Of a stretch of 64,000 bases of DNA, positions 24,131 through 46,618 are shown in pieces. A program made the translations under genes and the position numbers. The stretch's first letter is position 1, and the number at the start of each line of letters is the position of its first letter. Under the pieces are notes generated by a model, which did not search any database, was not told where the DNA came from, and worked only from the letters and a program-made list of their open reading frames with translations. Source of the DNA: an uncultured Actinomycetes bacterium (lineage in GTDB: Bacteria; Actinomycetota; Thermoleophilia; RBG-16-64-13); the NCBI GenBank assembly GCA_947085635.1, contig CAMTXC010000005.1, positions 16,749-80,748 on the forward strand, given 5' to 3'.

Positions 24131-24301
24131 AGGGTTTCCCATTGCCGCAGATATCAAGATGGAAGTCGGTTTCACGGGCAGCGCACATATGGGAGTCATC
24201 TTGTCCAGACAACTGCAGACAACGGAGCACGCACACGAGCGCTTCTTCTTGCGTCGCTCGGTCCCGGGGGGAAATCACTTGTTGGACGGTAGTTCGTCAT
24301 A

Positions 24302-25039: not shown

Positions 25040-25751
25040 GGTCAAAGAACTGAGCGTCGCCTACGGGGACGTACGGGCCTTATGGGACGTTTCCCTAGAG
25101 GTCGAGGAAGGGTCGATCGTGGCCCTGGTCGGGGCCAACGGCGCAGGGAAGACCACCTTACTGAAGGCGATCTCGGGCCTTCTCCGTCCTCTCGGCGGAC
25201 ACATCCTCTTCGAGGGCGAGGACCTGGTTCATTTGAATACGAAGCGCCGCGTCGAGAAAGGCATTGTCATGGTGCCGGAAGGACGGCGGCTCTTCCAGGC
25301 TCTCACCGTCCTCGAGAATCTGAGGCTGGGAGCGTATCTGCCAAAGGCTCGGGCCGACTACGATGACTCCCTCGAAAGAGTCTTCACGCTGTTCCCGGTG
25401 CTGAAAGACCGGATGAACGGTAAGGCCGGTCTGATGAGCGGCGGCGAGCAACAGATGCTGGCGATCGGGCGGGCCGTCATGGCCCGGCCAAGACTTGTCA
25501 TGATCGACGAAGCGTCTCTGGGCCTCAGTCCCATCTTGACGAGGACGATCTTCGAGCTGATCGTCGCGCTCAACGAGCAGGGCACCACCGTTCTCCTCGT
25601 GGAGCAGAACATCCACATGGCCTTGAAGGTCTGTGACAAGGCGTACGTGATGAAGACCGGACACATGGTGTTGAGCGGGACCGGGGACGAGTTGCTGGCC
25701 AACGACGACGTGCGCAAAGCCTATGTGGGCGAGCGGGGGAGCAGGCTGTAG
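25023..25751 (+). CDS. ABC transporter ATP-binding protein (LivF-like)
   Basis: GANGAGKTT, MSGGEQQMLAIGRA, IDEASLGL and VRKAYVG. Confidence 0.9.
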   Translation: MNQLLEVKELSVAYGDVRALWDVSLEVEEGSIVALVGANGAGKTTLLKAISGLLRPLGGHILFEGEDLVHLNTKRRVEKGIVMVPEGRRLFQALTVLENLRLGAYLPKARADYDDSLERVFTLFPVLKDRMNGKAGLMSGGEQQMLAIGRAVMARPRLVMIDEASLGLSPILTRTIFELIVALNEQGTTVLLVEQNIHMALKVCDKAYVMKTGHMVLSGTGDELLANDDVRKAYVGERGSRL

Positions 25752-26632
25752 TGGGCTCGCTGGCTCAAATCCTGGTCAACGGCATCCTCTTGGGGTCCAT
25801 GTATGGGATCGCCGCCATCGGTCTCAGCCTCATCTTCGGGACGATGAGGATCATCTTCCTTGCTCAAGGGACGATGATCGTCCTCTTCGCCTACTTGACC
25901 TACTGGTCGTTCGAAAAGGCCGGAATCGATCCGTACCTATCCTTGTTCACAGTGGTACCCCTCGCGTTCGTTATGGGATTGGGGCTGTTCTACCTCTTGT
26001 TCCGGAAGGCTGCCGCGCTCGAGGACAAGAACGTCTCGTTGCTGCTCGCCGTGGGTCTGATGTACCTGATCGACAACCTGATCTTGAAGATCTGGTCGGC
26101 CACTCCGCGTGGTTTGAACCTCTCGTATTCAGGGGCCGTGCTGGTGGTCGGGGACATCAGGGTGCCGTGGCTACGCCTTGCGCTTCTGGGGCTCGCGCTT
26201 GGGTCTGCTCTTGTCGTGTACCTTTTCCTCAAGAAGACGCGGGTGGGGACAGCGGTGAGAGCAGCCTCTGAGGACATGGAGGCGACCACGATCCAGGGGA
26301 TCAACTCCGTCTGGGTGTGCGCGGTCAGCTTCGCCATCGGGATCGCCCTGGCGGGGGTGGCCGGTGTTGGGATGGCCACGGTCTACTCCTTTGACTACCA
26401 GTTTGGATTCACCTTCGCCATCAAAGCCCTGGTCGCGCTTGCCCTCGGGGGCATGGGCAACGTCTTCGGCGCGCTCGCAGGGGGGCTTCTCCTGGGTATC
26501 ATCGAGAACCTCGCCGCCTACTACATAGGCATTGCCTGGATCGAGGTAGCCTCTTATGGAACCTTTATGTTGGTGCTGATCTTCTTGCCCCAGGGCCTGT
26601 TCGGCAGACGGGCGCTGGTAAAGAAAGTATGA
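25751..26632 (+). CDS. Branched-chain-type ABC permease (LivH-like)
   Basis: Polytopic membrane protein with the N-terminal LVNGILLGSMYGIAAIGLSLIFG motif. Confidence 0.9.
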   Translation: MGSLAQILVNGILLGSMYGIAAIGLSLIFGTMRIIFLAQGTMIVLFAYLTYWSFEKAGIDPYLSLFTVVPLAFVMGLGLFYLLFRKAAALEDKNVSLLLAVGLMYLIDNLILKIWSATPRGLNLSYSGAVLVVGDIRVPWLRLALLGLALGSALVVYLFLKKTRVGTAVRAASEDMEATTIQGINSVWVCAVSFAIGIALAGVAGVGMATVYSFDYQFGFTFAIKALVALALGGMGNVFGALAGGLLLGIIENLAAYYIGIAWIEVASYGTFMLVLIFLPQGLFGRRALVKKV

Positions 26633-26633
26633 C

Positions 26634-27680
26634 GTGGGGAGCGACCCTAGAATCGATGGCGTGGATATGAAGCTGCTGCCGGACACCAGCGGGCTGGACA
26701 AGAGGAAGCTGACCTGGACGAGCCTCGGGGCCTTGGCGGTCGTGTTCTTCGCGACCCTGCCGTTCTACTACGACGTCCACAACGGGCAGTTCGGGGTCTT
26801 CTTCTTCAACGTCTTCGTGTACGTCATCGTCGCCCAGGGGTGGAATCTGATAAGCGGGTACACGGGGCAGATCAGTCTTGGCCAGAACGCCTTCTTCGGT
26901 GTCGGTGCCTACACCATGGCGCTGTTGTGGTTCAACGACGTCACCAAGACCGGGTACTACTTCGACCCGGTCTTGATGATCCTCAGCGGAGTGACGCCGT
27001 TCATCCTCGCCGTCCTGGTCGGAATACCGCTCCTGTCCCGCCTGCGGGGCGACTACTTCGCCTTCGGCACCCTGGGGATGGGGATGATCGTCACTGTTCT
27101 GTTCATCAATGGGGGGATGTTCACTGGTGGCGCGGAGGGCAGGATGCTGGTCCCGAAGATGCCCGAAGGCGTCGTCTTCAACTTGCGCACTCACTATTGG
27201 GTAGCCTTCCTGATAGCCGTTCTGGCGACTCTGGTGGTCTACTTCCTGACTTCTTCCAGGGTCGGGCTTGCTCTTAAGGCCATCCGGGAAGACGAGGTCT
27301 CCGCGGCGTCGCACGGAATCAATGTACTCAAGTACAAGGTCATGGCCTTCGCCGTGGGAGCGTTCATGGCGGGGGTGGCCGGCAGCATATACGGCTACTA
27401 CCTCCTTCAGGTGACGCCGTCGAACGTCCTAACCTCGAACTGGCTGTTCTTGCCGATCCTCATGGTCGTGCTTGGGGGCACGGGAACGATCCTTGGCCCG
27501 TGGCTGGGTGCGTTCGTGATCTATCTCATATCCTGGTACGGGGACTCGTTCTTCGCCGGCTACCACCCGATAATCTCGGGGGTCGTCATCATATTGGTGA
27601 TGCTGTTCCTGCCGTCCGGCCTGATGGGGTTGGGCCAGAAGGTGCCGGGCTGTGGGAGAGGAGGTCGCGGATCCAGGTAG
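26634..27680 (+). CDS. Branched-chain-type ABC permease (LivM-like)
   Basis: Polytopic membrane protein with the GWNLISGYTGQISLGQNAFFGVGAY motif. Start uncertain (GTG 26634 or ATG 26667). Confidence 0.9.
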   Translation: MGSDPRIDGVDMKLLPDTSGLDKRKLTWTSLGALAVVFFATLPFYYDVHNGQFGVFFFNVFVYVIVAQGWNLISGYTGQISLGQNAFFGVGAYTMALLWFNDVTKTGYYFDPVLMILSGVTPFILAVLVGIPLLSRLRGDYFAFGTLGMGMIVTVLFINGGMFTGGAEGRMLVPKMPEGVVFNLRTHYWVAFLIAVLATLVVYFLTSSRVGLALKAIREDEVSAASHGINVLKYKVMAFAVGAFMAGVAGSIYGYYLLQVTPSNVLTSNWLFLPILMVVLGGTGTILGPWLGAFVIYLISWYGDSFFAGYHPIISGVVIILVMLFLPSGLMGLGQKVPGCGRGGRGSR

Positions 27681-27830
27681 GGCTATGGAGCAACGGCTCA
27701 CCCGCACCGGTCAACCCGGCGGGCGCGGGGTGACTCCTAGGCGGGCGACCCAGTGCAGCGCTCCCGGCTCCACTTCGATCTTCGAGGTGAGACGGGGATG
27801 TCTTGTCGAGTGACGAGGGAGGATGTACCC

Positions 27831-28460
27831 ATGGCACATGAGTTGGTCGATGCGTTGGTGGGTATGAGGCAGAAGGATACTCTTCGGATAGTCGAGGAGA
27901 TGCTTGAGCGTGGGGAGGATCCCCAGACCGTCCTCGACCTGGGACAGGAAGCCATGCGGATCGTGGGCGATCGGTTCGAGGAGGGGAGTTTCTTCCTTCC
28001 CGAGCTGATGATGTCGGGGGAGATGTTGAAGAACATCGCCGAGATCATCAAGCCGAGGTTGGCCTAGCAGGCAACCGAGACGGCCAAGATCGGCACGGTC
28101 GTCCTTGGCACGGTGCGCGGCGATATCCATGACATCGGCAAGGACATCGTCGGCTTCGTGCTCGACATGAACGGCTTCAAGGTCGTCGACCTGGGCATCA
28201 ACGTGTCTGAGGAGACGTTCGTCGAGGCCGTAAGAGAGCATCAGCCGCAGGTTCTCGCGCTGTCCGGCTTCCTCTCTCTTGCGTTCGACTCGATGAAGTC
28301 CACGGTCGACCAGGTGCGCACAGCCGGTTTCGATCCGAAAGTAATCATCGGAGGCGGGCAGATGGACGAGACTGTGCGCGTCTTCACCAGCGCGGACGCC
28401 TACGGTGACGATGCCATGGCCGCGGTGGTCTTCGCCAAGCAGACTGTGGGGGTGAGTTGA
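27831..28460 (+). pseudogene. Corrinoid (B12-binding) methyltransferase-partner protein interrupted by one in-frame TAG
   Basis: Helical cap domain (27831-28064), TAG at 28065-28067, then in the same frame KIGTVVLGTVRGDIHDIGKDIV, carrying the DxHxxG cobalamin-ligand motif, and the Rossmann domain. Total length is typical for corrinoid proteins. Confidence 0.75.
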
Positions 28461-28516
28461 CATGGCAGACAACGTGAAGGGCAGAGCGGAACGCTTGTCT
28501 CGACAGGAACTGGAGG

Positions 28517-29866
28517 ATGCGCATGAACGCTGACGAACAGTCGTGGTCCCAACTGTCGCCGGATGAGAAACTCGAACTACGCTGGAAGGCGTTCGTCGAG
28601 GCTCCCATCGATTTCGTCAGCCCGGAGGCCGAAGCGGCCTACCGTTCGAGGGCTACGCGTCTGAAGAAGGCCATTCTTCTCCAAGGCACGCCGGACCGAG
28701 TCCCTGTGACGCCGCTGACACACTACTATCCCGGACGGAGCCAGGGCCTGACGCCATACGACGCCATGCACGACTACCAGCGGGCGGCGGATGCCTGGCT
28801 CCAATCGAACCTCGACCTCCAGCCCGACGCCATGATGGGGCCACTCTTCTCAGCCATCCCGGCCCGGGCCTACGAAATCCTCGATGTCAAGATCATGAGT
28901 TGGCCGGGGCACGGGGCCCCCATGGAAGGGGGCTTCCAGTACAACGAGGCCGAGTGGATGCGCGCAGACGAATACGATCTGCTCATGGACGACCCGACGG
29001 ACTTCTTCCTTCACGTCTACATGCCCCGTGTCGCCACTGGGTTGGAAGGGCTGGCCGGTCTGGTCTCTCCGCAGGACATGATCGAGATAGTCACTGGGCC
29101 TGCCTATTGGATGCGCTGGGCCAGTCCCGAGGTGCTGGAGACTCTCGAGAAGCTCGCGGCGGCCGGGCGCGAGGCCCAAGCGTGGGGAGCCGCTATGTTC
29201 CCGATGCTCGGCCGTTTGGTAGCCGAAGGGTTCCCGGGCCCGACCGGGGCCATGTCCAAAGCCCCGTTCGACATCCTGAGCGACACCCTGCGCGGCACTC
29301 GCGGCCTCATAATGGACATGTTCAATCAGCCGGATACCGTGCTCGAAGCCTGCGACCGACTCGTTCCCTTCGCCGTCAAGTGGGTGACCAGAAGGGCGAC
29401 TCCCCAGAGTCCTCCGCTGGTCTTCATCCCTCTCCACAAGGGAGCCGACGGGTTCATGAGCGACGAGCAGTTCAAGACGTTCTACTGGCCGAGTCTGCGC
29501 AAGGTGATGCTGGGGCTCATCGAGGACGGCTTTGTGCCCTGTCCATTCGCCGAGGGCGGCTACAACGACCGGCTCGAGGCTATCCGCGACCTGCCGCCAG
29601 GCCGGACTGCCTGGCACTTCGACCGCACCGACATGCGTCGGGCCAAGGAGGCCATGGGCGGCATAGCCTGCATCGAAGGCAATGTGCCTCCTTCACTGCT
29701 CAACTTGGGCACCCCCGAGCAGGTGACGGCCTACTGTCGTGATCTGATCGAGGCGGTTGCCCCGGGAGGCGGCTTCATCCTCGATGGCGGCTCCGTGATC
29801 GACGAGGCCAAGGTCGAGAACATGCAGGCGATGGTTCAGGCGGCTCAGGACTACGGCGTCTACTAG
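28517..29866 (+). CDS. Uroporphyrinogen-decarboxylase (URO-D) family protein, probable corrinoid-dependent methyltransferase
   Basis: N-terminal KKAILLQGTPDRVPV and C-terminal GNVPPSLLNLGTPEQV...GGGFILDGGSVI...ENMQAMV are typical of MtaA/URO-D-like methyltransferases. Lies directly downstream of the corrinoid protein. Alternative ATG at 28523. Confidence 0.7.
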   Translation: MRMNADEQSWSQLSPDEKLELRWKAFVEAPIDFVSPEAEAAYRSRATRLKKAILLQGTPDRVPVTPLTHYYPGRSQGLTPYDAMHDYQRAADAWLQSNLDLQPDAMMGPLFSAIPARAYEILDVKIMSWPGHGAPMEGGFQYNEAEWMRADEYDLLMDDPTDFFLHVYMPRVATGLEGLAGLVSPQDMIEIVTGPAYWMRWASPEVLETLEKLAAAGREAQAWGAAMFPMLGRLVAEGFPGPTGAMSKAPFDILSDTLRGTRGLIMDMFNQPDTVLEACDRLVPFAVKWVTRRATPQSPPLVFIPLHKGADGFMSDEQFKTFYWPSLRKVMLGLIEDGFVPCPFAEGGYNDRLEAIRDLPPGRTAWHFDRTDMRRAKEAMGGIACIEGNVPPSLLNLGTPEQVTAYCRDLIEAVAPGGGFILDGGSVIDEAKVENMQAMVQAAQDYGVY

Positions 29867-29989: not shown

Positions 29990-30756
29990 TCAAGCCAGCT
30001 GGAAACCGCCGTCCACGTAGAAGGAAGCACCGGTGCAGAAGCTGCTCTCGTCGCACGCGAGGAAGAGCACGAGGTCGGCGACCTCCTCCGGCGTACCGTA
30101 GCGCTTCATCAGCGACGAGGCCGCCAGGTCGGCGGCGCCCTTGGCGGGGTCGTCCGGCGAGAAGGTCCGCTCCAGCTGGTGGATCATGGGGGTCTCGATC
30201 ACACCCGGGAGCACGGCGTTCACGCGGATACCGGCGGGAGCGTACTCCACGGCGGCCGTGCGCATCATGCCCACCACCGCGTGTTTCGTCGCCGAGTACG
30301 CCACGTTCCCCGGCTTGCCGCCCGTGCCCCCTGCCGATGAGATCAGGATGACGCTCCCCCCACCGCGTTCCACCATCAACGGCAACCCGTACTTCAGGGT
30401 GTAGAACACCGCGGTGAGGTTGACGTCGATCACGCGCTTGAAGACGTCGATGGGGTATAGCCCGCGATGTCCGACACGGTTCCCCAGATACCGGCGTTCG
30501 GGAACAGCACGTCGATACCGCCGTACAGCTCCACGGCCGCCGCCAAGGCGGCCTGCACCTGTTCGGGGTCGGTGACGTCGGCCGCGAACCCGCTCACCCG
30601 GGGGCCGGCCGCGGCGGCGACCTCATCGAGCGCCGCTCGATGGAGGTCGACGGCGAGCACGCACGCCCCCTGCTCCGCGAATCGCGTGGTGGTCGCCAGG
30701 CCAAGGCCGGATGCCGCACCCGTTATGACGGCCACTTTATCTTTGAGGCGTCCCAT
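29990..30756 (-). pseudogene. Classical SDR oxidoreductase split by a 1-nt frameshift
   Basis: The N-terminal part (TGAASGLGLA, NAGI) ends ...DIAGYTPSTSSSA*. The next frame continues IDVFKRVIDVNLTAVF...SSAGG...YSATKHAV...PG. The shift maps to the G4 run at 30452-30455. Confidence 0.8.
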
Positions 30757-31234: not shown

Positions 31235-31244
31235 CAGACGTCTG
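31235..31244. promoter_or_regulatory. Perfect palindrome CAGACGTCTG between the ABM gene and mftA
   Basis: Same 10-mer as at 18695-18704. Lies 22 nt upstream of the putative mftA -35. Confidence 0.4.
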
Positions 31245-31265: not shown

Positions 31266-31294
31266 TTGACGCCGTGGGGGCCGGTTGTTATGGT
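31266..31294 (+). promoter_or_regulatory. Candidate mftA promoter
   Basis: TTGACG (31266-31271), 17-nt spacer, TATGGT (31289-31294). Confidence 0.35.
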
Positions 31295-31453: not shown

Positions 31454-31573
31454 ATGACACCGAATGAAGGCGAACTCCATTCAGACGACCTTGCGGCCGA
31501 CGTCGACCCCGAGGTCATCGACGAGATAGAAGTGGAGGACCTGGCGGTCGACGGCATCTGCGGCGTCTACTAG
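31454..31573 (+). CDS. mftA: Mycofactocin precursor peptide
   Basis: 39-aa ORF below the track cutoff: MTPNEGELHSDDLAADVDPEVIDEIEVEDLAVDGICGVY*. It has an acidic leader and the hallmark C-terminal (I/V)DG(M/I)CGVY. GGGAGGA lies 7 nt upstream and mftB follows immediately. Confidence 0.9.
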   Translation: MTPNEGELHSDDLAADVDPEVIDEIEVEDLAVDGICGVY

Positions 31574-31599
31574 CGGCGCGTGAGCGCCCGAGGTCGGGG

Positions 31600-31848
31600 A
31601 TGAAGACCTATCACCTGTCTCCCTGGGCCCGTGCGCGGCAGGAACAGTTCGGGCTCCTCTTCTACGATACCCGCAGCACCACCATGACGTTCGTGCGTTC
31701 GGGCGCGTGCCTCGTCGCCCCCCCGTTCGAAGATCGAGCCCGCCCGCTGCGGATCGTGTCGGGCTCGCGGGCCGAGGAGCTGCGCGTGACCCGCGTGCTC
31801 GAGCATCTCGAGGCCAAAGGACTCGTCGTTGCCACAGAGTCTCACTAG
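31600..31848 (+). CDS. mftB: Mycofactocin biosynthesis chaperone (PqqD-like RRE)
   Basis: 82 aa. HLSPWARARQEQFGLLFYDTRS pattern, positioned between mftA and the radical SAM gene. Confidence 0.85.
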   Translation: MKTYHLSPWARARQEQFGLLFYDTRSTTMTFVRSGACLVAPPFEDRARPLRIVSGSRAEELRVTRVLEHLEAKGLVVATESH

Positions 31849-32857
31849 CGCGCGCCTGCGGGCGCCCGTAAACGTCACCTGGGAGATCACGGATCGTTGC
31901 AACCTCGGGTGCCGGCACTGCCTGTCGGCCGACCTGCGCCGGGGGAGCCGGGGCGAGCTCGATCGGGCGCGGTGCGAAGCTCTGATCGACGAGCTGGCGG
32001 CGATGCAGGTGTTCCAGATCAACTTCGGTGGCGGTGAGCCCTTCCTCAGGCCGGACTTCTTGGATATCCTCCGCTACGCCCAGGCGAAGGGCATCGTCAC
32101 CTGCGTGAGCACCAACGGTACCCTGCTCACCCCGGCCCTGGCGGACGAGCTTGTGGGCCTGGAACTGCTCTTCCTGCAGGTGAGCCTGGACGGAGCCCGC
32201 CCGGAGACGAACGACGCCATCCGCGGCGCGGGTACCTTCGAGCGCATCATAGAGGGCGTCTCCCTGCTCGCGCGGCGATCTTTCCCCGACCTGAGCCTCA
32301 ACATGGTAGTGACCAGCACGAACTTCCATGAGATCGGGGATTTTCACCTCCTCGCCGGCCGGTACGGAGCGCGCACCCGGCTCTCCCGCTTCCGGCCTTC
32401 CGGCGACGGTTCGCGCATGTGGGAGCAGTACCGCCTGAGCCGCGAGCAACTGGCGTGGCTCTCTGAGTTCCTTGGCGAGCACGCGGAGATCCTCACCGGC
32501 GACTCCTTCTTCTCGCTCACGAACGCGGATCGCAGGAATCAGGGTCTGCGGAGCTGCGGTGCCGCCCGGATGACCTGTGCCGTAGGGCCCGACGGCAGCG
32601 TGTTCCCCTGTGCGTTCCTGTGCGAGCCCGCGTTCTTGGCCGGCAACGTGGCGGATGACTCATTGGCCTCTATCTTCGAGCACGCTCCGATCATGGAGGT
32701 GCTACGAGAGCTCGAGGTCGAGCCGTGCCAGACGTGTGACAGGTTCTCCCTCTGCAACGGCGGATGTCCCGCGGTGGCGTACTTCGTCACCGAGTCGCTG
32801 GGGCTCCCCGACCCCGAGTGTCTGCGCGTGGCGATCCCACGCACCGAGGTGGCGTGA
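31829..32857 (+). CDS. mftC: Mycofactocin radical SAM/SPASM maturase
   Basis: CNLGCRHC radical SAM cluster and a C-terminal SPASM Cys set (CGAARMTCAV...FPCAF...CQTC...CNGGC). TTG start is uncertain. Confidence 0.9.
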   Translation: MPQSLTSARLRAPVNVTWEITDRCNLGCRHCLSADLRRGSRGELDRARCEALIDELAAMQVFQINFGGGEPFLRPDFLDILRYAQAKGIVTCVSTNGTLLTPALADELVGLELLFLQVSLDGARPETNDAIRGAGTFERIIEGVSLLARRSFPDLSLNMVVTSTNFHEIGDFHLLAGRYGARTRLSRFRPSGDGSRMWEQYRLSREQLAWLSEFLGEHAEILTGDSFFSLTNADRRNQGLRSCGAARMTCAVGPDGSVFPCAFLCEPAFLAGNVADDSLASIFEHAPIMEVLRELEVEPCQTCDRFSLCNGGCPAVAYFVTESLGLPDPECLRVAIPRTEVA

Positions 32858-34806
32858 TGCAGTTCCCCCTTCTGTTCTCGCCGCTGCGGATCGGCCGGGC
32901 TGAGGTGCCCAACCGCATCTCGTTCTCGGCGCACCTCACCAACCTGGCGGAGCACGGACTACCCACCGAGCGGCTCACCCACTACCTCGCCGCCCGGGCG
33001 CGCGGCGGCGCGGGCCTCATCATCACCGAGGAGCAGTCGGTGCACCCCACCGACCGGGCCTACGAGCACCTCATAGAGGCCTTCCGCCCCGAGGTGGTGA
33101 CCGGGTACCGGCGGCTGACGCGCGCCGTCCACGAGTTCGACACACGCATCTTCGCCCAGCTGAACCACAACGGGCAGCAGTGCGCTGGCCATCTCTCCCG
33201 ACTGCCCGTGTGGGCGCCCTCACCCATCCCCGATGTCCTCTACCGGGAAGTTCCCAAGGCCATGGAGCTCGAGGACATCGCCGAGGTGATCGAGTACTTC
33301 CGTCGCTCGGCGGTACACGTCCGGGAGGGGGGGTTCGACGGCGTGGAGCTGCAGTTCGGGCACAGCTCCTTGGCGAGGCAGTTCATGTCGCCCCTCACGA
33401 ATTACCGTGGCGACGAGTACGGCGGCGACGCCGAGAAGCGGCTCCGCTTCCCGCTGGAGCTGGTTGCGGCCGTTCGTGAGGCTCTGGGCGCCGACTATAC
33501 CCTCGGGGTGCGTCTGTGCGCGGACGAGCTGATCCCGGGGGGGCTGACCTTGGACGACGCCAAGGACATCGCCCGGCGGATGGAAGCCACCGGGCACCTG
33601 GACTTCATCAACCTCACGCTCTCGACCTTCTACAACCTATACCTGGTGGGTGGGACCATGCACCTGCCTCTCGGGTACACGGTACCCCTGGCTGCCGGTG
33701 TCAAAGAGGCGGTCTCTCTTCCCGTGTTCGCCACGGGTCGCATCAACGACCCGGTATCGGCCGAGCGGGTACTGGCCGATGGGCAGGCCGACATGATCGG
33801 GGTGGTGCGGGGGCAGATCGCCGATCCCGACTTCGCCCGCAAGGCTCGGGACGGCCGCACGGACGACATCCGCTACTGCATCGCCTGTAACCAGAACTGC
33901 TACGGGCGGGTGGGGCTCAATCGTTCCATCGGCTGCGTGCAGAACCCGGCGGTCGGCGCCGAGGCGACCGAAGGTGAGCTGTGGCTCAAGCCCACCAGGA
34001 ACCGGAAGCGCGTGCTGGTGGTGGGGGGCGGGCCCGCGGGCATGTGGGCGGCGAAGACCGCCGCGCTGCGAGGCCACGACGTCACCCTGTACGACGAGGG
34101 CGACCAGCTGGGCGGTCAGGTGCTGATCGCGGCCAAGGGCGGCGGTCGCGACGAGTTCGGGGTGATCGTGCGCAATGAGCGCAAGCAGCTGGAGCGACTG
34201 GGCGTGCCCGTGGTCCTCGGCACCCAGGTGACCCCGAAGCTGGTGGTGGAGCTGAAGCCCGATGCCGTCATCGTGGCTACGGGGTCCCGGCCCAAAGCGT
34301 GCCCCGTCGCCGGCGGCGACGGACCCGACGTGGTGAACGTCTGGCAGGTGCTGAACGACGAGGCGGAGCTGGGAGAGCGGATCGTCCTGATCGACTACGA
34401 CGGCCACCACCAGGCGACGGCGACCGCGGAGACGCTCGCCGACCGTGGCAAGAAGGTGCACGTAGTGACCTCGAGTCTGTTCGTGGGCGCGGAGCTGGGG
34501 CCGTCGCAGGATCTGTACCTCTCACGCCAGCGTCTCCTGCAGAAGGGAGTGACGTTCACCCCCGACTTCGCCGTGATGGAGATCAAAGGCACCGAGATCC
34601 ACGGGTTCAACGTGTACTCGAACGAATGGGACGTTATCGGCCCCTTCGACACTGTGGTGACGGCCATGGGCAACGACGCCGACGACGCCCTGTATTTCGC
34701 CCTGAAAGGGTCGGTCGCGGAGCTCTACCGGGTGGGGGACTGCGTCGCGCCCCGTAAGGTAGACATGGCCATCCTCGAGGGGTACGCGGCCGGCAAGCGG
34801 GTATGA
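32857..34806 (+). CDS. OYE-like FMN / 4Fe-4S / FAD flavoprotein (2,4-dienoyl-CoA reductase / trimethylamine dehydrogenase family)
   Basis: N-terminal old-yellow-enzyme TIM barrel (NRISFSAH..., GGAGLIITEE, FDGVELQFGHS). Cluster motif CIACNQNCYGR...IGC. Then VLVVGGGPAGMWAA and a second nucleotide-binding domain. ATGA overlap with mftC. Confidence 0.85.
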   Translation: MQFPLLFSPLRIGRAEVPNRISFSAHLTNLAEHGLPTERLTHYLAARARGGAGLIITEEQSVHPTDRAYEHLIEAFRPEVVTGYRRLTRAVHEFDTRIFAQLNHNGQQCAGHLSRLPVWAPSPIPDVLYREVPKAMELEDIAEVIEYFRRSAVHVREGGFDGVELQFGHSSLARQFMSPLTNYRGDEYGGDAEKRLRFPLELVAAVREALGADYTLGVRLCADELIPGGLTLDDAKDIARRMEATGHLDFINLTLSTFYNLYLVGGTMHLPLGYTVPLAAGVKEAVSLPVFATGRINDPVSAERVLADGQADMIGVVRGQIADPDFARKARDGRTDDIRYCIACNQNCYGRVGLNRSIGCVQNPAVGAEATEGELWLKPTRNRKRVLVVGGGPAGMWAAKTAALRGHDVTLYDEGDQLGGQVLIAAKGGGRDEFGVIVRNERKQLERLGVPVVLGTQVTPKLVVELKPDAVIVATGSRPKACPVAGGDGPDVVNVWQVLNDEAELGERIVLIDYDGHHQATATAETLADRGKKVHVVTSSLFVGAELGPSQDLYLSRQRLLQKGVTFTPDFAVMEIKGTEIHGFNVYSNEWDVIGPFDTVVTAMGNDADDALYFALKGSVAELYRVGDCVAPRKVDMAILEGYAAGKRV

Positions 34807-35849
34807 GCCGAGGCGCGGATGTCCTGGTGGTGCTCGTGTCCGAAGTCGAGGGCCGAGACGGTGCCGTCGCGGCGCTCCAAGCCGAGGCCGGGCGCATCGC
34901 CCGGGCGCTCGGCGGCAGGCTGACGGCCGTGGAGATAGCGCGTGCCGCCGGCCCCGATGTCGAGGCGTCGGTGGAGGTCCTCGCTGCCCATGTGCGTGCG
35001 CTTCACCCGCGCGTGGTCCTCATGCTCGACGGCGACCTGAGCCGTGAGCTCGCTCCGCGTCTGGCTCTGGCATCCGGCAGCTCCGCCATAGTGGGCTGCA
35101 CCGGCGTCGCCGCCGGGGGTGGCACTACCGTTTACTCCAAGCCGGTTTACGGCGGATGGCTCGAGCAGGAGCTCTCCTACGCAGATGGCTCGCTGGAGGT
35201 CGCCACCCTGGTCGGGGGCGCCCTCTCCCCGGCGCCGGCCGTGCTCCAGGCCACGGCGCCCGCCGGGGTGCCGGACGCGGCGCCGGCCGTGCTCCAGGCC
35301 ACGGCGCCCGCCGGGGTGACGGACGCGGCGCCCGCCGGGGTGACGGACGAGCCTGCCGTTCGCCGCCTTGAGCTCGTGCCCCCCGACTACCGGACCGTCG
35401 ACATAGTGCACGCCAGGCGGATAGTGGCGGCCGGCATGGGCGTCTCCGCCGTCGCACCCGCGCCTGCCGGCCCCGCGCCCGTCGCCGGGGCTGTCGTGGA
35501 GCCGGTCGCCGACGACGAGCTGATGGACTACGTGCAGGAGCTCGCCGAGCTCCTGGAGGGTTCGGTCGCCGCCACCCGCCCCGTGGTGGACGAGGGGCGT
35601 CTGCCCAAGGAGCGGCTTGTCGGGCAGACAGGCAAGACGGTGGCGCCGGAGCTGTATCTGGCACTGGGGATCTCTGGGTCTCCGCACCACCTGGCTGGGA
35701 TCCAGGGAGCCGGGACCATCATCGCCGTCGACCGGGACCCGGCGGCCCCTATCTTCCAGTTCGCGGACGCCGGCTACGTTGCCGATCTCAGCGAGATCCT
35801 GCCCGCGCTCATCCGGAGGATCAAGGAGTGGCGAGATGGCAGGGGCTGA
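34803..35849 (+). CDS. fixB: Electron transfer flavoprotein alpha-subunit-like (FixB)
   Basis: C-terminal FAD domain VGQTGKTVAPELYLALGISGSPHHLAGI...IIAVDRDPAAPIF. Confidence 0.85.
   Translation: MSRGADVLVVLVSEVEGRDGAVAALQAEAGRIARALGGRLTAVEIARAAGPDVEASVEVLAAHVRALHPRVVLMLDGDLSRELAPRLALASGSSAIVGCTGVAAGGGTTVYSKPVYGGWLEQELSYADGSLEVATLVGGALSPAPAVLQATAPAGVPDAAPAVLQATAPAGVTDAAPAGVTDEPAVRRLELVPPDYRTVDIVHARRIVAAGMGVSAVAPAPAGPAPVAGAVVEPVADDELMDYVQELAELLEGSVAATRPVVDEGRLPKERLVGQTGKTVAPELYLALGISGSPHHLAGIQGAGTIIAVDRDPAAPIFQFADAGYVADLSEILPALIRRIKEWRDGRG
35232..35351 (+). repeat. In-frame 48-nt tandem duplication (2.5 copies) in the FixB interdomain linker
   Basis: Units at 35232-35279 and 35280-35327 differ at one position. 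A 24-nt partial third copy follows. Encodes APAVLQATAPAGV(P/T)D twice, then AAPAGVTDE. Confidence 0.85.
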
Positions 35850-37137
35850 GTTCGACGCCATCGTCGTCGGCGCCGGCCCGGCCGGTTCGACGGCCGCCCT
35901 GACGCTGGCGCAGCAGGGCGTCAGGACATTGCTCCTGGAGCGGGGAGAGCAGCCTGGCTCCAAGAACATGTTCGGTGGCACCCTCGCTTGGTGTCCCGCG
36001 CCGGAGGAGCTTATCCCAGAATTCTGGGAGCAGGCTCCCTGGGAGCGGGAGGTGGTCAAGCGGGTGTTGACGGTGGTGGCCGAGAGTTCGGCCACATCCG
36101 TGGTGTTCCGGTCCGACGACGTCGGCAGGCCGTTCCGGGGCCGCGTCACTCTCTTCCGTCCCATCTTTGATCGCTGGCTGGCCGAGCAGGCCGAGTCCGC
36201 TGGAGCCACCCTGGTGTGCGGCTGTATGGTCGACGGCTTGGTCGTCCGGGGTGGCGTGGTGCGCGGAGTCCGGGTGGCCCGACCGGAAGGCGTTCTGGAG
36301 GCGCCTCTGGTGGTGGCGGGCGATGGGGCGCTCTCCTTCCTTGCCAGAGAGGCGGGTCTGCACGGGGGCGTGCGCGCCGAGCAGATGGCGGTGGGTGTAC
36401 GGGCCCTCTACTCGCTGGACGAAGAGGACATCGACAAGCGCTTCGGCCTCGTGCGTGGGCAAGGGGCGACGAACGAGTTCCTGGGCGGGACGGAAGGCGT
36501 GCGCGGTGGGGGCTTCATCTACACGCAGACGGACAGCCTCTCGGTGGGGCTGGTGCTCCATCTCGACTCGCTCAAGGCCCGCGGGCTCGCCCCCTACGAC
36601 CTCCTGGAGAGGTTCGTGAGCTCGGCGCACGTGGCTCCGCTTCTGCGAGGAGCCCGGTTGGTGGAGTACTCCGCCCATCTTGTGCCCGAAGCGGGTCTCT
36701 CCATAGTGCCGCGTCTCTCCGCGGGAGGGTTCATGGTGACCGGAGACGCCGGTGGTCTCTGCTACACGAACGGCCTGACCATGGAAGGCATGAACCTGGC
36801 GATCACCTCGGGTCACACGGCCGGCCTCGTCGGCGCCGAGGCGCTCGCGGCCGGGGACGTGTCGGCGCATCGCCTTCGGGCCTACGACGACCGCCTGCGG
36901 GAAAGCTTCGTGTTCCGGGACATGAAGACCTACGACCGGGCGATCAAGCTCCTGCGGCGTGACCGCCTGTTCTCCGACTATCCCGAAGTCGTGAGCGCGG
37001 TGATGGAGCGGCTCTACGCGTCCGACGGGAGACCCAAACGGAAGATCAGCGCGATCGCGCGCGAGGCCCTCCGTGGCCGTGTTCCGCTGCGCGACGTGGC
37101 GGCCGATCTGATCAGCATAGGGAGGTCGTACCTGTGA
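35836..37137 (+). CDS. fixC: FAD-dependent ETF:quinone-oxidoreductase-like protein
   Basis: FDAIVVGAGPAGSTAALTLAQQGVRTLLLERGEQPGSKNMFGG closely parallels the FixC N-terminus. Track ORF trimmed to ATG 35836. Confidence 0.85.
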   Translation: MAGAEFDAIVVGAGPAGSTAALTLAQQGVRTLLLERGEQPGSKNMFGGTLAWCPAPEELIPEFWEQAPWEREVVKRVLTVVAESSATSVVFRSDDVGRPFRGRVTLFRPIFDRWLAEQAESAGATLVCGCMVDGLVVRGGVVRGVRVARPEGVLEAPLVVAGDGALSFLAREAGLHGGVRAEQMAVGVRALYSLDEEDIDKRFGLVRGQGATNEFLGGTEGVRGGGFIYTQTDSLSVGLVLHLDSLKARGLAPYDLLERFVSSAHVAPLLRGARLVEYSAHLVPEAGLSIVPRLSAGGFMVTGDAGGLCYTNGLTMEGMNLAITSGHTAGLVGAEALAAGDVSAHRLRAYDDRLRESFVFRDMKTYDRAIKLLRRDRLFSDYPEVVSAVMERLYASDGRPKRKISAIAREALRGRVPLRDVAADLISIGRSYL

Positions 37138-37409
37138 ATCTCGACGACATCTTCGATCTCGTGAGCTATCGGATCCACCCCGATGCCCACATCGTCGTGG
37201 ACCATACCACCTGCTTATCCTGTCTCCATCGCGCGTGCACGTTCGCGTGCCCGGCACGCTGCTATGAATGGAACGAGGGACGCGGACGGGTGGATTTTGC
37301 GTATGAGTCGTGCCTGGAGTGCGGCACCTGTCTTCTGGTGTGCGATCGGGGAGCCCTTGAGTGGAGCTACCCGGTGGGAGGCTACGGTGTGCGGTTCCGG
37401 GCGACGTGA
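37134..37409 (+). CDS. fixX: Ferredoxin-like protein FixX
   Basis: HIVVD...C..ACPARCYEW...FAYESCLECGTC...EWSYPVGGYGVRFR is the FixX signature. GTG overlaps the fixC stop. Confidence 0.85.
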   Translation: MNLDDIFDLVSYRIHPDAHIVVDHTTCLSCLHRACTFACPARCYEWNEGRGRVDFAYESCLECGTCLLVCDRGALEWSYPVGGYGVRFRAT

Positions 37410-37416
37410 GTGGATC

Positions 37417-38436
37417 ATGAGCCACGTGCGTCACTCGTGGATGGGGCCGACGGCGGAGAACGATGACGGGCGGGGCCGCCTAGTGAGACTCTTGGTGCTC
37501 CTGGAGCCGTCGGACGACGTGCGCATCCCGCCTCAGCGAGATCGGCGTTCGGGCGGGATGCGCACCGAGCGGCAGGTGCGCCGGCCGGATCCGGCCGGCG
37601 CCCGCGCTCTCGACATCGCGCTCGCGCTGAGGGCGGCTCGGCCCGGTACGGAGGTCGTCTCAATGCTTCTCGGCTCCGAGAACGACGACACCTTCCTCCG
37701 AGAGACCCTCGCTCGGGGCTGCGATGAGGCCATCCGCATATGGGACGAGGAGTGTCTCCGCCTGCACGCCCCCGGCAAGGCCGTGATACTGGCGGCGGCC
37801 GCCCGGGCCGCCCGCTGTGGCCTGGTGCTGACAGGGGCGGCGAGCGAGACTACGGCGTCGGCCCAGGTGGGCGTCCTGGTGGCCGCCCACCTGGGCGTGC
37901 CTTGTGTCACACAGGCCGTGGATCTCGAGGTGCCGGCCGGGGGGCTCGAGGGATCGCCGGTGCGCGCCACCGGCGTGGGCCCGGCAGTCGCGCCCGGCCC
38001 GGTGCGCGCCACCCGCGGACTGGCCGGCGGCTTCCGAGAGATCGTGGAGGTGTCGCCGCCGGCGGTGATCACATTCGTGCCCGCGGAGCCTGACGTCTCG
38101 GTCGCCCCGCTCATCGCGATTCTCGATGCGCACTCTCGTCAGATCCCGGTATGGGACCTGGCCGAGCTCGGCGTCCCGCGCGAGGACGTCCGCCGCGCCG
38201 ATGGATCGCTGCGCTATGGGCGCCTGCGCACTCCGCGGCCGACCGTGCGAGGTGTGCCCGCTCCCGATTCCGCAGCCCCGGCGTTCGAGCGCATCGGGGA
38301 ACTCGTGCGCGGGACTGTGCGACGGAGGGATGGGCGGGTGTCCAGCCGACCGGTGGAGGAGTTGGCGGACGAGCTGTTCCAGGCGCTGCGCGACGGAGGG
38401 TGGCTGGACCACCTGCGTCAGGGGGAGATGGAGTGA
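37417..38436 (+). CDS. fixA: Electron transfer flavoprotein beta-subunit-like (FixA) with a C-terminal extension
   Basis: PDPAGARALDIALAL...GCDEAIRIWD...LVLTGAASETTASAQVGVLVAAHLGVPCVTQA...PPAVITF matches the ETF-beta fold pattern. It is about 80 aa longer than typical, and the start is uncertain. Confidence 0.75.
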   Translation: MSHVRHSWMGPTAENDDGRGRLVRLLVLLEPSDDVRIPPQRDRRSGGMRTERQVRRPDPAGARALDIALALRAARPGTEVVSMLLGSENDDTFLRETLARGCDEAIRIWDEECLRLHAPGKAVILAAAARAARCGLVLTGAASETTASAQVGVLVAAHLGVPCVTQAVDLEVPAGGLEGSPVRATGVGPAVAPGPVRATRGLAGGFREIVEVSPPAVITFVPAEPDVSVAPLIAILDAHSRQIPVWDLAELGVPREDVRRADGSLRYGRLRTPRPTVRGVPAPDSAAPAFERIGELVRGTVRRRDGRVSSRPVEELADELFQALRDGGWLDHLRQGEME

Positions 38437-39968
38437 TCCCGCTCTCTTACCGGCTCCGCGAAGGCGTTCGGATTGAGACGGCCGGCACCGGGTGGACGGC
38501 GGTGTCCGAGCTGCCCCTGGCCGTGGTCCGGGTGAACGCGGCGGCCGCCAGGTTGCTCGAACTCACGCGGGGAGGGAGCCGAGTGGCCGACCTGGCGGCC
38601 GCCCTCTCCACCGACCAGGAACGCATCCTCCATCTGTGCGAGTACTTCCGGCGCCGGGGCATGCTCGATGTCGACCTTTCGCCTGCCGCGGACGCGGGCA
38701 GCGCAGCCGGGCCGTCGATCTCTGTGATCGTGCCCACCAAGGACCGTGCGGACGAGCTCGAGGACTGCCTGGTCGCGCTGTTCGCGATGGACTACCCGCG
38801 CGAGAGGTTCGAGGCGATCGTGGTGGACGACGGTTCGCGCGACGACACTGCGGACGTCGCGCGCAGACATCCGTGCCGGTACCTCGCCAATGATCGGAAC
38901 CGCGGGCAGTCGTACTCGCGCAATGTGGGGGCCCGGGCGGCGTCGGGGGAGATCCTGGCCTTCATCGATAGCGATTGCGTCGCCTCCCCCGAGTGGTTGC
39001 GTGAGCTCGTCCCGTTCTTCTCGTGGCCTGCGCTCGCCGCCGTCGGCGGTTTCGTGGCCGGATACCACGACGAGTCCCGGCTCGATCGCTACGAGCAGGC
39101 GGCCTCTTCCCTCAATATGGGGGACCGTCTGATCCTGATGGCAGACGACCGCTCGATGTCCTACGTGCCCACATGCAACCTGCTCGTGCGCAGGGAGGCC
39201 TACCTCGCTCTTGGCGGGCTCAGGGAGGACCTGCGTGTGGGCGAAGATGTCGATCTGTGCTGGCGACTGCGGGCGGCGGGGTGGCGCCTGGTCTACTCGC
39301 CTACCGGCACAGTCAGGCATCGCCACCGCAACCGCCTGCGTGAGATGCTCAAGCGCCGCGCTGCGTACGGCACCTCGGAAGCGACACTCCACGCCCTCCA
39401 CCCCGACAAGCGCAAGACGATGCCCGTGCGCTTCCTGCCGGCGCTGACCGCGGTGATCGTCGCCGCGGCGGCGGTGGGGCTCGAACCGCGGTTGCTTCCG
39501 CTCTGTCTGGTGCCCCTGGCGGGCGACGGCGTGCGCAGCAGTGTCCGCCTGGCGCGCGAGGGCGTCCAGGTCCGCTCGAGCCGGGTGTGGTTCGCCGCGA
39601 TCCGGGGCCACCTGTCGTTCCTGTATTCGGTGTCGTTCCACCTGGTCCGCTACTACCTTGTGGTGCTCGTGGCGGCGGGGCTCGCGGCACCGGGCCTCTG
39701 GCTTCTGGCGCTCGCCGCACTCGTCTACGTGGCGGCCGTGGACTACGTGGTGAAGCGGCCGCGGCTGGCCTTCCCTGTCTTCCTGTGGTTCTCACTGGCG
39801 GAGCACGCGGCGTATCAGGTTGGCGTCCTCGCCGGGTGCGTGCGCCGGGGTACCTTCCGCTCCTACGTGGTCAGGTTCGGCCGGGCCGAGGGGCCCGGCC
39901 GCGTCGGTCGCGCTTCCGGGGTGCTCCGTTCCTCCGTTCGCTTCGGGCGGGCCCCCTCCGGCTTGTAG
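38433..39968 (+). CDS. mftF: Mycofactocin-system glycosyltransferase
   Basis: PqqD-like N-terminal segment, then a GT2 core (ISVIVPTKDRADEL, VVDDGSRDDT, AFIDSDC, GEDVDLCWR) and C-terminal TM helices. GTG 38433 overlaps the fixA stop. Confidence 0.8.
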   Translation: MIPLSYRLREGVRIETAGTGWTAVSELPLAVVRVNAAAARLLELTRGGSRVADLAAALSTDQERILHLCEYFRRRGMLDVDLSPAADAGSAAGPSISVIVPTKDRADELEDCLVALFAMDYPRERFEAIVVDDGSRDDTADVARRHPCRYLANDRNRGQSYSRNVGARAASGEILAFIDSDCVASPEWLRELVPFFSWPALAAVGGFVAGYHDESRLDRYEQAASSLNMGDRLILMADDRSMSYVPTCNLLVRREAYLALGGLREDLRVGEDVDLCWRLRAAGWRLVYSPTGTVRHRHRNRLREMLKRRAAYGTSEATLHALHPDKRKTMPVRFLPALTAVIVAAAAVGLEPRLLPLCLVPLAGDGVRSSVRLAREGVQVRSSRVWFAAIRGHLSFLYSVSFHLVRYYLVVLVAAGLAAPGLWLLALAALVYVAAVDYVVKRPRLAFPVFLWFSLAEHAAYQVGVLAGCVRRGTFRSYVVRFGRAEGPGRVGRASGVLRSSVRFGRAPSGL

Positions 39969-39994: not shown

Positions 39995-40711
39995 CTACTC
40001 CTTCGACTCGAGACGAACCTGGGCCATCCGGTTCTCCATATTCTGCAGATGTCGGGCCATCCCTTGGGCCGCTCCCGCTGGGTCGCGCCCGGCGATGCGG
40101 TCGCATATCTCCTCGTGATCCTCGAGAATCTCCTTCAGGGCGCCCTCCTGAGCGATGAGCTCGTTGGTCTCCTTTTTTAGAGCGATGCGCACGGAGGTGA
40201 TGATGCTGAAGTACACCTCGTTCTTGGAGGCTTCCGCTATGTGCAGGTGGAAGACCACGTCCTCCTCGATGAAGCGGGCGGGTTTGTCGACCACGCTCCG
40301 CATCCGTTCCAGGTCCTCCTTCAGCGTCGCTATCTCCCCTTCCTCGGCGCGGACGGAGGCCAGTTCGGCGGTTCTTACCTCGATGAGCTTCCGCGCCTCC
40401 ATCAGCTGCGCCCACCCGGTAGTGGCCGTCCCGAAAGGCGTGGTGGCGGCGAACGAATCGGCAGGGTCGGGCGGCTTTACGAAGGTGCCGCCGTTGTAGC
40501 CCCGCTTCACGTACAGGAAGCCGGTGAGCTCGAGTACCTTCAACGCCTCCCGGATGGCGGAGCGCCCCACGTTGAATTGCCTTGCGAGGTCGGTCTCACT
40601 GGGCAGCTTCTGTCCCGGCTCCAGGTTGCCCAGGAGGATCTCACGCTGGATGCTGCGGGCCACCTTCTCGAAGAAGCGCTCGTTCTTGAGCGGCTTGAAC
40701 ATCTTGGCCAT
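39995..40711 (-). CDS. GntR-family transcriptional regulator (FadR/FCD subfamily)
   Basis: LPSETDLARQFNVGRSAIREALKVLE wHTH and an all-helical FCD-like C-terminal domain. Confidence 0.9.
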   Translation of the reverse strand: MAKMFKPLKNERFFEKVARSIQREILLGNLEPGQKLPSETDLARQFNVGRSAIREALKVLELTGFLYVKRGYNGGTFVKPPDPADSFAATTPFGTATTGWAQLMEARKLIEVRTAELASVRAEEGEIATLKEDLERMRSVVDKPARFIEEDVVFHLHIAEASKNEVYFSIITSVRIALKKETNELIAQEGALKEILEDHEEICDRIAGRDPAGAAQGMARHLQNMENRMAQVRLESKE

Positions 40712-40843: not shown

Positions 40844-40853
40844 CAGACGTCAG
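40844..40853. promoter_or_regulatory. Operator-like site CAGACGTCAG in the GntR / kinase divergent region
   Basis: GTCAGACGTCAGAT, 9 of 10 match to CAGACGTCTG. Sits at the predicted +1 of the plus-strand promoter. Confidence 0.4.
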
Positions 40854-46138: not shown

Positions 46139-46618
46139 ATGAAGACCGTCGCCGCCGTCGTACACGAGCAGGGTGGGCCGTTCTTGCTCGAAGAGGTGTC
46201 CCTGGATGAGCCCCGCGCGGACGAGGTGCTCGTTCGCATGGTGGCTACCGGCCTCTGCCACACCGATCTCTCGGTTCGAGCCGGCTATATCCCGTTCCCG
46301 CTTCCGGGCGTGATGGGGCACGAGGGTGCAGGAATTGTCGAGGCGGTCGGTTCCGCGGTGAAGCGCGTCGCCCCCGGCGATCGCGTGCTGGCCACCTTCA
46401 CCTCATGCGGGCATTGCGCCAACTGCACGGGTGGCGAGCCTGCCTACTGCCACACGTTCATACCGTCGAATCTCGTCGGTGGCACGCGCTCTGACGGCAG
46501 CTACACCAAACTGCCGCTCGAGCGCATGATCCGCTGTTACCCGTTCGAAGACATCGAGCTGGCCGCCGCCGACGCCGCTGCGGGCGCGACCATCAAGCCG
46601 GTCTTGGTATTCGACTGA
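46139..46618 (+). pseudogene. Zinc-ADH derivative lacking the Rossmann domain (in-frame internal deletion)
   Basis: Intact N-terminal catalytic domain (CHTDL, GHEGAG, CGHCANCTGGEPAYC) runs directly into a typical ADH C-terminal tail (YPFEDIELAAADAAAGATIKPVLVFD). It is 159 aa, against about 370 aa expected. Confidence 0.6.

Follow-up and report, generated by a model that had tools for sequence, protein, structure and literature searches.

A mycofactocin operon with an OYE-family flavoprotein and an ETF-FixCX module in the position of mftD

Nine genes of the window form a mycofactocin operon

The DNA analyzed here is a stretch of 64,000 nucleotides from contig CAMTXC010000005.1 of an uncultured Actinomycetes bacterium (hereafter, the window; its GC content is ca. 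66%, and positions are counted from its first letter). The plus strand between positions 31454 and 39968 carries nine intact open reading frames (ORFs): mftA, mftB, mftC, OYE2, etfA, fixC, fixX, etfB and mftF. The first three and the last are genes of mycofactocin, a cofactor derived from a peptide that is made on ribosomes and modified after translation (RiPP). The five genes between mftC and mftF, referred to below as the module, code for a flavoprotein of the FadH/OYE family, both subunits of an electron transfer flavoprotein (ETF), and FixC and FixX proteins. Protein identities were assigned from NCBIfam profile scores relative to curated cutoffs, together with Pfam domains and PDB matches. 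For all nine genes, these matches bear out the identities given in an earlier, sequence-only reading of the window.

31454..31573, plus strand: mftA, 39-residue precursor peptide of the variant type, ending in EVEDLAVDGICGVY (VDGICGVY)
31600..31848, plus strand: mftB, precursor-binding chaperone (TIGR03967, 36.1 bits, cutoff 33)
31829..32857, plus strand: mftC, radical SAM/SPASM maturase (TIGR03962, 334.9 bits, cutoff 265)
32857..34806, plus strand: OYE2, 649-residue FMN TIM-barrel/[4Fe-4S]/Rossmann flavoprotein (TIGR03997, 945.5 bits, cutoff 793.15)
34803..35849, plus strand: etfA, FixB-like ETF alpha subunit (PF00766, 88.5 bits; PF01012, 34.1 bits)
35836..37137, plus strand: fixC, predicted FAD subunit of the ETF:quinone oxidoreductase type (FixC subfamily models; PDB 7koe_C)
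37134..37409, plus strand: fixX, ferredoxin-like subunit with two Cys motifs (Fer4 families, Fer4_ETF_QO)
37417 (or 37483)..38436, plus strand: etfB, FixA-like ETF beta subunit (PF01012, 75.3 bits)
38433..39968, plus strand: mftF, family 2 glycosyltransferase that glycosylates the cofactor (TIGR03965, 377.8 bits, cutoff 280)

All nine ORFs have the high third-position GC content typical of real genes, and a ribosome-binding site, GGGAGGA, is located 5′ of the mftA ATG. The sequence-only reading described the genes as mostly overlapping by 4-20 nt, which is roughly right: the junctions, in gene order, are +26, -20, -1, -4, -14, -4, +7 (or +73) and -4 nt, the alternative value corresponding to the uncertain start of etfB (ATG at 37417 or an in-frame GTG at 37483). 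The stop codon of mftC and the start ATG of OYE2 have one base in common (TGATG), and OYE2 is translationally coupled to mftC. The GTG start codon of mftF overlaps the etfB stop codon (GTGA). The nine genes are a real, tightly packed mycofactocin operon.

The precursor peptide passes NF040489, the model of the "variant-type mycofactocin precursor" (34.1 bits, cutoff 30), and scores just under the cutoff of the canonical model TIGR03969 (23.3 bits, cutoff 25). Since the C-terminus of MftA, DG[IMV]CGVY, is invariant in all cluster types compared, the same AHDP core is presumably made by MftC, a protein with Pfam Radical_SAM and SPASM domains and the motif CNLGCRHC.

The module is conserved together with mycofactocin genes

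The nearest relatives of the window ETF alpha are encoded in metagenome-assembled genomes (MAGs) of Thermoleophilia. Six metagenome contigs, whose ETF alpha proteins are 45-67% identical to that of the window, have the same nine genes in the same order and differing flanks; a gene for a Zn-dependent alcohol dehydrogenase (Zn-ADH) or for a dehydrogenase/reductase of the short-chain type (SDR) is usually found 5′ of mftA. A scan with an ETF-alpha alignment, limited to one genome per GTDB species, returned 80 loci. In each of the 45 loci with an ETF alpha of at least 35% identity, the module genes are in the order OYE-etfA-fixC-fixX-etfB; mftB/C are located upstream, and mftF downstream, wherever the contig is long enough. 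The 45 loci represent three phyla, with Desulfobacterota among the taxa; their sources are Thermoleophilia, Gaiellales, Dehalococcoidia, Syntrophorhabdaceae and a deltaproteobacterium. The only recurrent neighbor beyond the nine genes is a family of ca. 369 residues, probably Zn-ADH, that is present in 35 of the 45. The remaining 35 loci are more distant and contain ordinary etfB-etfA pairs with no mft gene.

One could suppose that an unrelated acyl-CoA or ETF operon was inserted by accident into the mycofactocin cluster of a single strain. The same order is, however, found with mft genes in 45 species of three phyla, and in haloarchaea and Streptomyces as well, and ETF relatives outside the module clade never sit with mft genes. 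An accident of this kind is exceedingly improbable, and chance juxtaposition was rejected on these comparative data. The recurrence with mft genes is far beyond chance, and the module is a conserved unit that is dedicated to mycofactocin, in support of the link inferred in the sequence-only reading; the pattern which that reading named as evidence against such a link, a block kept mainly in genomes without mft genes, was not observed.

In a neighbor-joining tree of ETF alpha, the module proteins of Thermoleophilia, Desulfobacterota and Dehalococcoidia group together. Mycofactocin ETFs of Streptomyces are on long branches among generic ETFs, and the tree is too weak to distinguish one origin of the module from several.

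A second, partial copy of the operon was observed in one MAG that also has a complete one. At this locus (L032, positions 6209-12316; same MAG as locus L025), an mftA-like peptide gene with a product ending LAVDGICGVY is directly followed by OYE-etfA-fixC-fixX-etfB, and mftB, mftC and mftF are missing. In a deltaproteobacterial MAG (L044, positions 6716-8071), mftB and mftC are apparently fused into one ORF of 451 codons, and there is no mftF within 7 kb after etfB.

Comparison with annotated mycofactocin clusters

The sequence-only reading was not aware of any description of this linkage, and here it has to be corrected: the ETF-linked type of mycofactocin cluster is already named in curated databases and is not a new system. 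NCBIfam models cover OYE2 (TIGR03997), ETF alpha (NF038209), ETF beta (TIGR04503) and the variant MftA (NF040489). On Streptomyces plasmids, PGAP/RefSeq annotates mftA, mftB, mftC, "FadH/OYE family oxidoreductase 1" and "oxidoreductase 2", followed by mycofactocin-associated ETF alpha, an FAD-dependent oxidoreductase, a 4Fe-4S protein and ETF beta, then sometimes an SDR, and then mftF and mftE. The mft cluster of Haloterrigena was named in Haft 2011, where all its components are said to be on plasmid pHTUR01. In the literature searched, we found no paper that combined "mycofactocin" with "electron transfer flavoprotein" or used the PGAP product names of the ETF subunits.

Streptomyces plasmids such as NZ_CP108009.1, NZ_CP107787.1 and NZ_CP102515.1 resemble the window in having mftA-B-C, OYE2-etfA-fixC-fixX-etfB and mftF and in having neither mftD nor mftG. 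Their OYE2 is 49% identical to that of the window and passes TIGR03997. Unlike the window, they contain OYE1 (TIGR03996), usually an SDR gene within the operon, mftE, and a canonical MftA with the ending IDGMCGVY, whereas the window has no OYE1 or mftE within its 64 kb, a variant MftA, and an ETF alpha only ca. 30% identical to theirs. In Haloterrigena turkmenica (pHTUR01) and Halolamina sp. CBA1230, mftA, B, C and F are also located beside OYE-etfA-fixC-fixX-etfB, with no mftD and with an OYE 40% identical to the window OYE2. Unlike in the window, the haloarchaeal module is a separate convergent operon, on the opposite strand and with the same internal order; mftE and a chaperone, MftB2, are present (mftE-A-B2-C-F), and several genes of mycofactocin-coupled SDRs are found nearby.

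Canonical mftABCDEF clusters with mftG/mftR (Mycobacterium, Tsukamurella, Streptomyces sp. NBC_00080) have in common with the window the MftA core ...CGVY and the MftB, MftC and MftF families. They differ in having MftD (an LldD-like FMN enzyme) and MftE encoded directly after mftC, the GMC dehydrogenase MftG and the TetR-type regulator MftR. The Streptomyces sp. NBC_00080 plasmid, with canonical mftR, mftG and mftA-F, has no module. Compared with the annotated module-type examples, the window operon is a leaner version, with a single OYE, no mftE nearby, a variant MftA and divergent ETF subunits.

MftD and the module exclude each other beside mftC

Mycobacteria are the source of almost all that is known of mycofactocin; there, MftD creates the redox center and MftG passes electrons on to respiration. 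We searched for the missing genes by tblastn (E ≤ 1e-3) with MftD from Tsukamurella, Thermomicrobium and Mycolicibacterium and with MftE, MftG, MftR and MftM as queries. None of the five proteins had a match in the 64-kb window, in agreement with the sequence-only reading on mftD, mftE, mftG and mftR, and MftD, MftE and MftG had no match in any of 88 ETF-seeded related loci. The MftE search was sensitive enough, because the same query detects the 38%-identical MftE of Haloterrigena.

In order to avoid seeding bias, metagenome contigs were also scanned with an MftC alignment led by the Thermomicrobium roseum sequence, which yielded 80 loci limited to ±10 kb. MftD was found in 18 of them, OYE1 or OYE2 in 22, and both in none; 12 of the 22 OYE-bearing loci also show ETF or FixC genes. 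When only the 20 loci of at least 15 kb were considered, seven had MftD only, eight the module only, none had both and five had neither (Fisher P = 0.015). A search of PLSDB revealed mftC on 12 plasmids. Four of these, from Tsukamurella, M. chubuense, Streptomyces sp. NBC_00080 and T. roseum, have MftD and no module near the cluster, while on the other eight (six from Streptomyces and two from haloarchaea) an OYE gene is located near mftC. Five of these eight plasmids were inspected, and each was confirmed to have all five module genes; a search for MftD at E ≤ 1e-40 found nothing on the eight, pHTUR01 included. The mftE gene is present on the module-type Streptomyces plasmids and on pHTUR01; the Halolamina gene is annotated there only as "creatininase family". 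MftD and the OYE/ETF module thus exclude each other in the neighborhood of mftC.

Loci of a third layout were also observed. Long metagenome loci L132, L135, L146, L136 and L173 have mftC, often with mftE and mftF, and neither mftD nor the module within ca. 10 kb; their oxidation step is either encoded at another place or carried out in another way. On the Mycolicibacterium chubuense plasmid pMYCCH.01 (locus L090, positions 11308-18441), a canonical mft cluster is broken after mftD by tyrosine recombinase genes and IS21; mftE is not listed at this locus, and mftF is 7 kb away on the other strand.

In M. smegmatis, deletion of mftD abolishes all mycofactocins and leads to accumulation of AHDP, while an mftE deletion strain still makes mycofactocins at a reduced level via other peptidases (PMC7491314). 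It follows from these phenotypes that a cluster without MftD needs a substitute and that one without MftE can function. The statement of the sequence-only reading that both proteins are required therefore holds for MftD and is overstated for MftE. Among the roles which that reading offered for the module, replacement of MftD is better supported than that of a pure MftG analogue, given the exclusion of the module and MftD.

Were the module to serve recycling only, it would be a mycofactocinol:quinone oxidoreductase chain analogous to MftG, and mftD and mftE would be located elsewhere in the genome. Chains of ETF and ETF:quinone oxidoreductase normally serve high-flux catabolic dehydrogenases. 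Ca. 25% of genomes with MftC have no MftG, and what might complement it was posed as a question by Graca et al. 2025 (PMC11778925). The role postulated for MftG, the transfer of mycofactocinol electrons to the respiratory chain, may be common to it and the module, though the two belong to unrelated protein families and MftG is a single FAD enzyme (PMC11778925). No module-type locus has MftG, and the loci at which mftC has neither mftD nor the module as a neighbor indicate that mftD can be unlinked. However, MftG is linked to mftC in just one of the 80 MftC-seeded loci, so it is unlinked in nearly all MftD-type loci too, and its absence is not specific to module-type clusters. A recycling-only role also offers no reason why clusters with the module should always lack an adjacent mftD when those of Streptomyces and haloarchaea have kept mftE, and it has to accommodate the failure to find MftD on the eight module-type plasmids. 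As to pHTUR01, Haft 2011 goes no further than to place all components on this plasmid and to note that MftD and MftE are not universal in mycofactocin systems. We consider a module confined to recycling rather unlikely, though a serious contender.

OYE2 and its predicted electron acceptors

OYE2 passes TIGR03997, "mycofactocin system FadH/OYE family oxidoreductase 2", with model positions 2-644 of 645 covered. Its family keeps the FMN-barrel motifs, the C-x2-C-x3-C-x11-C motif of the [4Fe-4S] cluster and the first dinucleotide loop, GGGPAG. The second Rossmann glycine loop, which is GCGGIG in FadH and binds NADPH there, is DYDGHHQA in the window OYE2 and is a non-glycine loop in all OYE2-family members examined, those of Streptomyces and haloarchaea among them. 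Aligned trimethylamine dehydrogenase and 2-naphthoyl-CoA reductase (NCR) have lost the glycine loop as well. The loss of the NAD(P)H loop fits an enzyme that exchanges electrons with a protein, here the co-encoded ETF, and not with a pyridine nucleotide.

The best solved relatives of OYE2 are NCR (6qkg, 295 bits) and FadH (1ps9, 277 bits); trimethylamine and histamine dehydrogenases score ca. 197 bits. Trimethylamine dehydrogenase of Methylophilus methylotrophus (structure 1o94, with ETF) resembles OYE2 in its FMN barrel, [4Fe-4S] cluster, vestigial dinucleotide domain and ETF partner. It differs in that its score is only 198 bits, below those of NCR and FadH, and that the Cys of its 6-S-cysteinyl FMN is absent from OYE2. 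Trimethylamine dehydrogenase oxidizes a C-N bond, the product of which is then hydrolyzed, and donates the electrons to ETF.

The window EtfA scores 112.2 bits with NF038209 (mycofactocin-associated ETF alpha, cutoff 240) and EtfB scores 71.5 bits with TIGR04503 (mycofactocin-associated ETF beta, cutoff 200). Though below cutoff, these are the top-scoring NCBIfam models for the two proteins, which are positional equivalents of the Streptomyces members and not members by score. PDB matches of EtfA are ETF alpha chains, and its C-terminal FAD domain is well conserved; those of EtfB include CarD (6fah_B) and Methylophilus ETF beta (1o94_C). The matches of the two subunits mix bifurcating and non-bifurcating kinds. 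FixC matches FixC of the T. maritima EtfABCX complex over its full length (7koe_C, E = 6.8e-66) and scores 308-314 bits, under the cutoffs, with the NCBIfam FixC subfamily models (308 vs 610); FixX scores 46.8 bits with NF011993 (cutoff 166).

The "zipper" motif of EtfB is DGDTAQ, which holds a second FAD, in bifurcating group 2 and DDDSNQ in canonical ETFs (PMC8958531). In the window EtfB it is TTASAQ, which matches neither, and the motif is degenerate across the family. Thus, there is no positive sign in the sequence of a second, bifurcating FAD in the predicted window ETF. The module resembles the FixABCX/EtfABCX systems of Azotobacter and Thermotoga maritima (7koe) in combining EtfAB with FixC and FixX. 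Unlike them, it has the order etfA-fixC-fixX-etfB, an EtfB without DGDTAQ and a dedicated OYE-type dehydrogenase attached; this comparison of sequences gives no evidence for NADH use by the window ETF system.

A 48-bp tandem repeat (positions 35230-35337, plus strand; 2.2 copies, 96% matching) was observed in the interdomain linker of ETF alpha. It encodes a duplicated APAVLQATAPAGV, and a 95%-identical relative, P0002, is 16 residues shorter.

Electrons could also flow the other way. ETF and FixCX would then feed OYE2, which would reduce mycofactocin or an enoate-like or aromatic metabolite; in a variant, OYE2 would feed the oxidation of some substrate into the mycofactocin pool. The best structural relatives of OYE2 (NCR, FadH and BaiCD) are reductases, known FixABCX and EtfABCX complexes bifurcate electrons (PMC10734219, PMC8958531), and many of the host lineages are anaerobes. 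The bifurcating-type motif is, however, missing from ETF beta, and no substrate-specific catabolic genes are kept around the module across phyla, where only a mycofactocin-type ADH or SDR recurs. Neither the translational coupling of OYE2 to mftC nor the exclusion with mftD is what such a role would lead one to expect, the latter being left unexplained by it. We therefore regard this use of the module as improbable.

A proposed role of the module in making and recycling mycofactocin

We tentatively propose that OYE2-ETF-FixCX performs the MftD-type oxidation of AHDP, and probably re-oxidation of the cofactor as well, with delivery of electrons to quinone; we would put the chances that this proposal is correct a little short of even. 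We infer which substrate OYE2 would act on, in which direction electrons would flow, and that a quinone would receive them. As in canonical systems, the cyclic AHDP core would be formed by MftB and MftC from the Val-Tyr at the C-terminus of MftA and glycosylated by MftF. The position of MftD would be taken by a redox chain consisting of OYE2, with no recognizable NAD(P)H site, the dedicated EtfAB, and FixCX as the ETF:quinone oxidoreductase. OYE2 would oxidize C3 of the pyrrolidinone ring, converting the amine AHDP to the keto-amide premycofactocin (the MftD reaction), and could plausibly also re-oxidize mycofactocinol to mycofactocin (the MftG reaction). The electron path would lead from FMN via the Fe-S cluster, the FAD of ETF and FixCX to menaquinone, and neither O2 nor NAD(P) would be needed. 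MftD itself uses O2, and independence of O2 would suit the largely anaerobic hosts.

OYE2 is the likely substitute because of its mutual exclusion with MftD, its position directly after mftC, and the chemistry of related C-N-oxidizing, ETF-dependent dehydrogenases. The flow of electrons to menaquinone would be downhill, because the midpoint potential of premycofactocin is -255 mV (quoted in PMC11778925 and PMC7491314).

Several points weigh against the proposal that the module replaces MftD. The closest solved relatives of OYE2 are reductases, with the amine dehydrogenases scoring lower, and the residue that carries covalent FMN in trimethylamine dehydrogenase (Cys30, 6-S-cysteinyl FMN) is Leu in OYE2 (SAHLTN). 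Neither ETF subunit reaches the curated cutoff of its mycofactocin-ETF model, and the nucleotide-binding zipper motif of ETF beta is degenerate. Clusters of the Streptomyces type have two OYE paralogues, between which the labor would be divided. The counts on which exclusivity is based are not phylogenetically independent, and an unlinked mftD is plausible because loci with mftC, mftE and mftF and neither mftD nor the module exist (L132, L135 and L146). A chain of five genes looks oversized for a purely biosynthetic step.

In operons of the Thermoleophilia type, where both mftD and mftE are missing from the vicinity, a single ETF-coupled flavoenzyme, OYE2, might take over the work of peptidase and deaminating oxidase alike by acting directly on the MftC-modified peptide. 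Dehydrogenation of the N-C-alpha bond of the cyclized residue would be followed by hydrolysis of the resulting acyl-imine, which would free premycofactocin and an amidated leader in one step, again by an oxygen-independent route. This is hinted at by the partial copy at L032, where mftA is followed by OYE-etfA-fixC-fixX-etfB with no mftB or mftC, and we consider it a long shot.

Operons of this type are widespread (Thermoleophilia, Dehalococcoidia, Desulfobacterota, haloarchaea, Streptomyces plasmids), and their module is a concrete candidate for filling both gaps in the present picture, the missing MftG and the non-universal MftD and MftE. What is added here is the mutual exclusion of mftD and the module, which makes the proposed replacement of MftD directly testable. 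If the proposal is true, a RiPP-derived cofactor can be made and recycled by an ETF-coupled route that is probably independent of oxygen, and the Fe-S flavoproteins of the OYE/FadH family have a new physiological partner.

Control signals and flanking genes

Features outside the operon are as follows:

29990..30756, minus strand: SDR gene resembling mycofactocin-coupled SDRs
31235..31244, plus strand: perfect palindrome CAGACGTCTG, candidate operator 5′ of the operon
31266..31294, plus strand: sigma-70-like promoter, TTGACG and TATGGT separated by 17 nt, with extended TG, ca. 160 nt 5′ of mftA
39995..40711, minus strand: gene of a GntR/FCD-family regulator, convergent with mftF (NCBIfam GntR-family matches)

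The putative promoter was found in a consensus scan; it is a consensus match only and is partly conserved in relatives. A terminator scan inside the block revealed nothing convincing: there was one weak match, in fixX, against 3.6 expected by chance. Separate promoters and terminators between mftC, the module and mftF, which the sequence-only reading had named, for transcript mapping, as evidence against a dedicated link to mycofactocin, were thus not seen in these scans; the one promoter-like site is 5′ of mftA. No Rfam family matched in the region between 29.5 and 41.5 kb.

The palindrome CAGACGTCTG is invariant in the regions upstream of mftA in related loci L001, L003, L010 and L040. A further site is present at 18695-18704, and copies with one mismatch are found at 47824-47833 and at 40844-40853, the latter being intergenic and 5′ of the GntR gene. 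Within the window, the statistics of the palindrome are weak (six matches found, 3.5 expected). The GntR gene is kept at the same position in relatives L001-L004. Its product is a candidate regulator in place of MftR, so that the window operon would be controlled by a GntR rather than a TetR-type protein, and the palindrome may be its operator.

The flanks also encode an ABC transporter, a two-component system, an aldehyde:ferredoxin oxidoreductase and trp genes, as well as Zn-ADHs, for which the best model is the N,N-dimethyl-4-nitrosoaniline (NDMA)-dependent type. Genes for a branched-chain-type ABC transporter, a corrinoid protein and an URO-D/MtaA-like methyltransferase (22609-29866, plus strand) are kept upstream of the operon in L001-L004, which suggests a methyl-transfer pathway, for a methylated amine or a betaine-like compound, beside the mycofactocin genes.

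Three damaged genes, coding for the SDR, the corrinoid protein and a Zn-ADH, are located in the 20 kb around the intact mft operon. Compared with intact 254-residue homologues (L001 and L003), the SDR gene has an extra CT near 30433, which splits it into ORFs of 108 and 147 codons; both halves match SDR models, including TIGR03971, and the gene is either a pseudogene or the result of an assembly error. The gene for a corrinoid-binding protein (27753-28460, plus strand) has an in-frame TAG at 28065-28067, a nonsense change or a sequencing error; a pyrrolysine site at this position was ruled out, since close homologues have GAG (Glu). Finally, positions 46139-46618 (plus strand) contain the remnant of a Zn-ADH of the NDMA-dependent type, which has lost the Rossmann domain and whose N-terminal catalytic domain runs straight into the extreme C-terminus.

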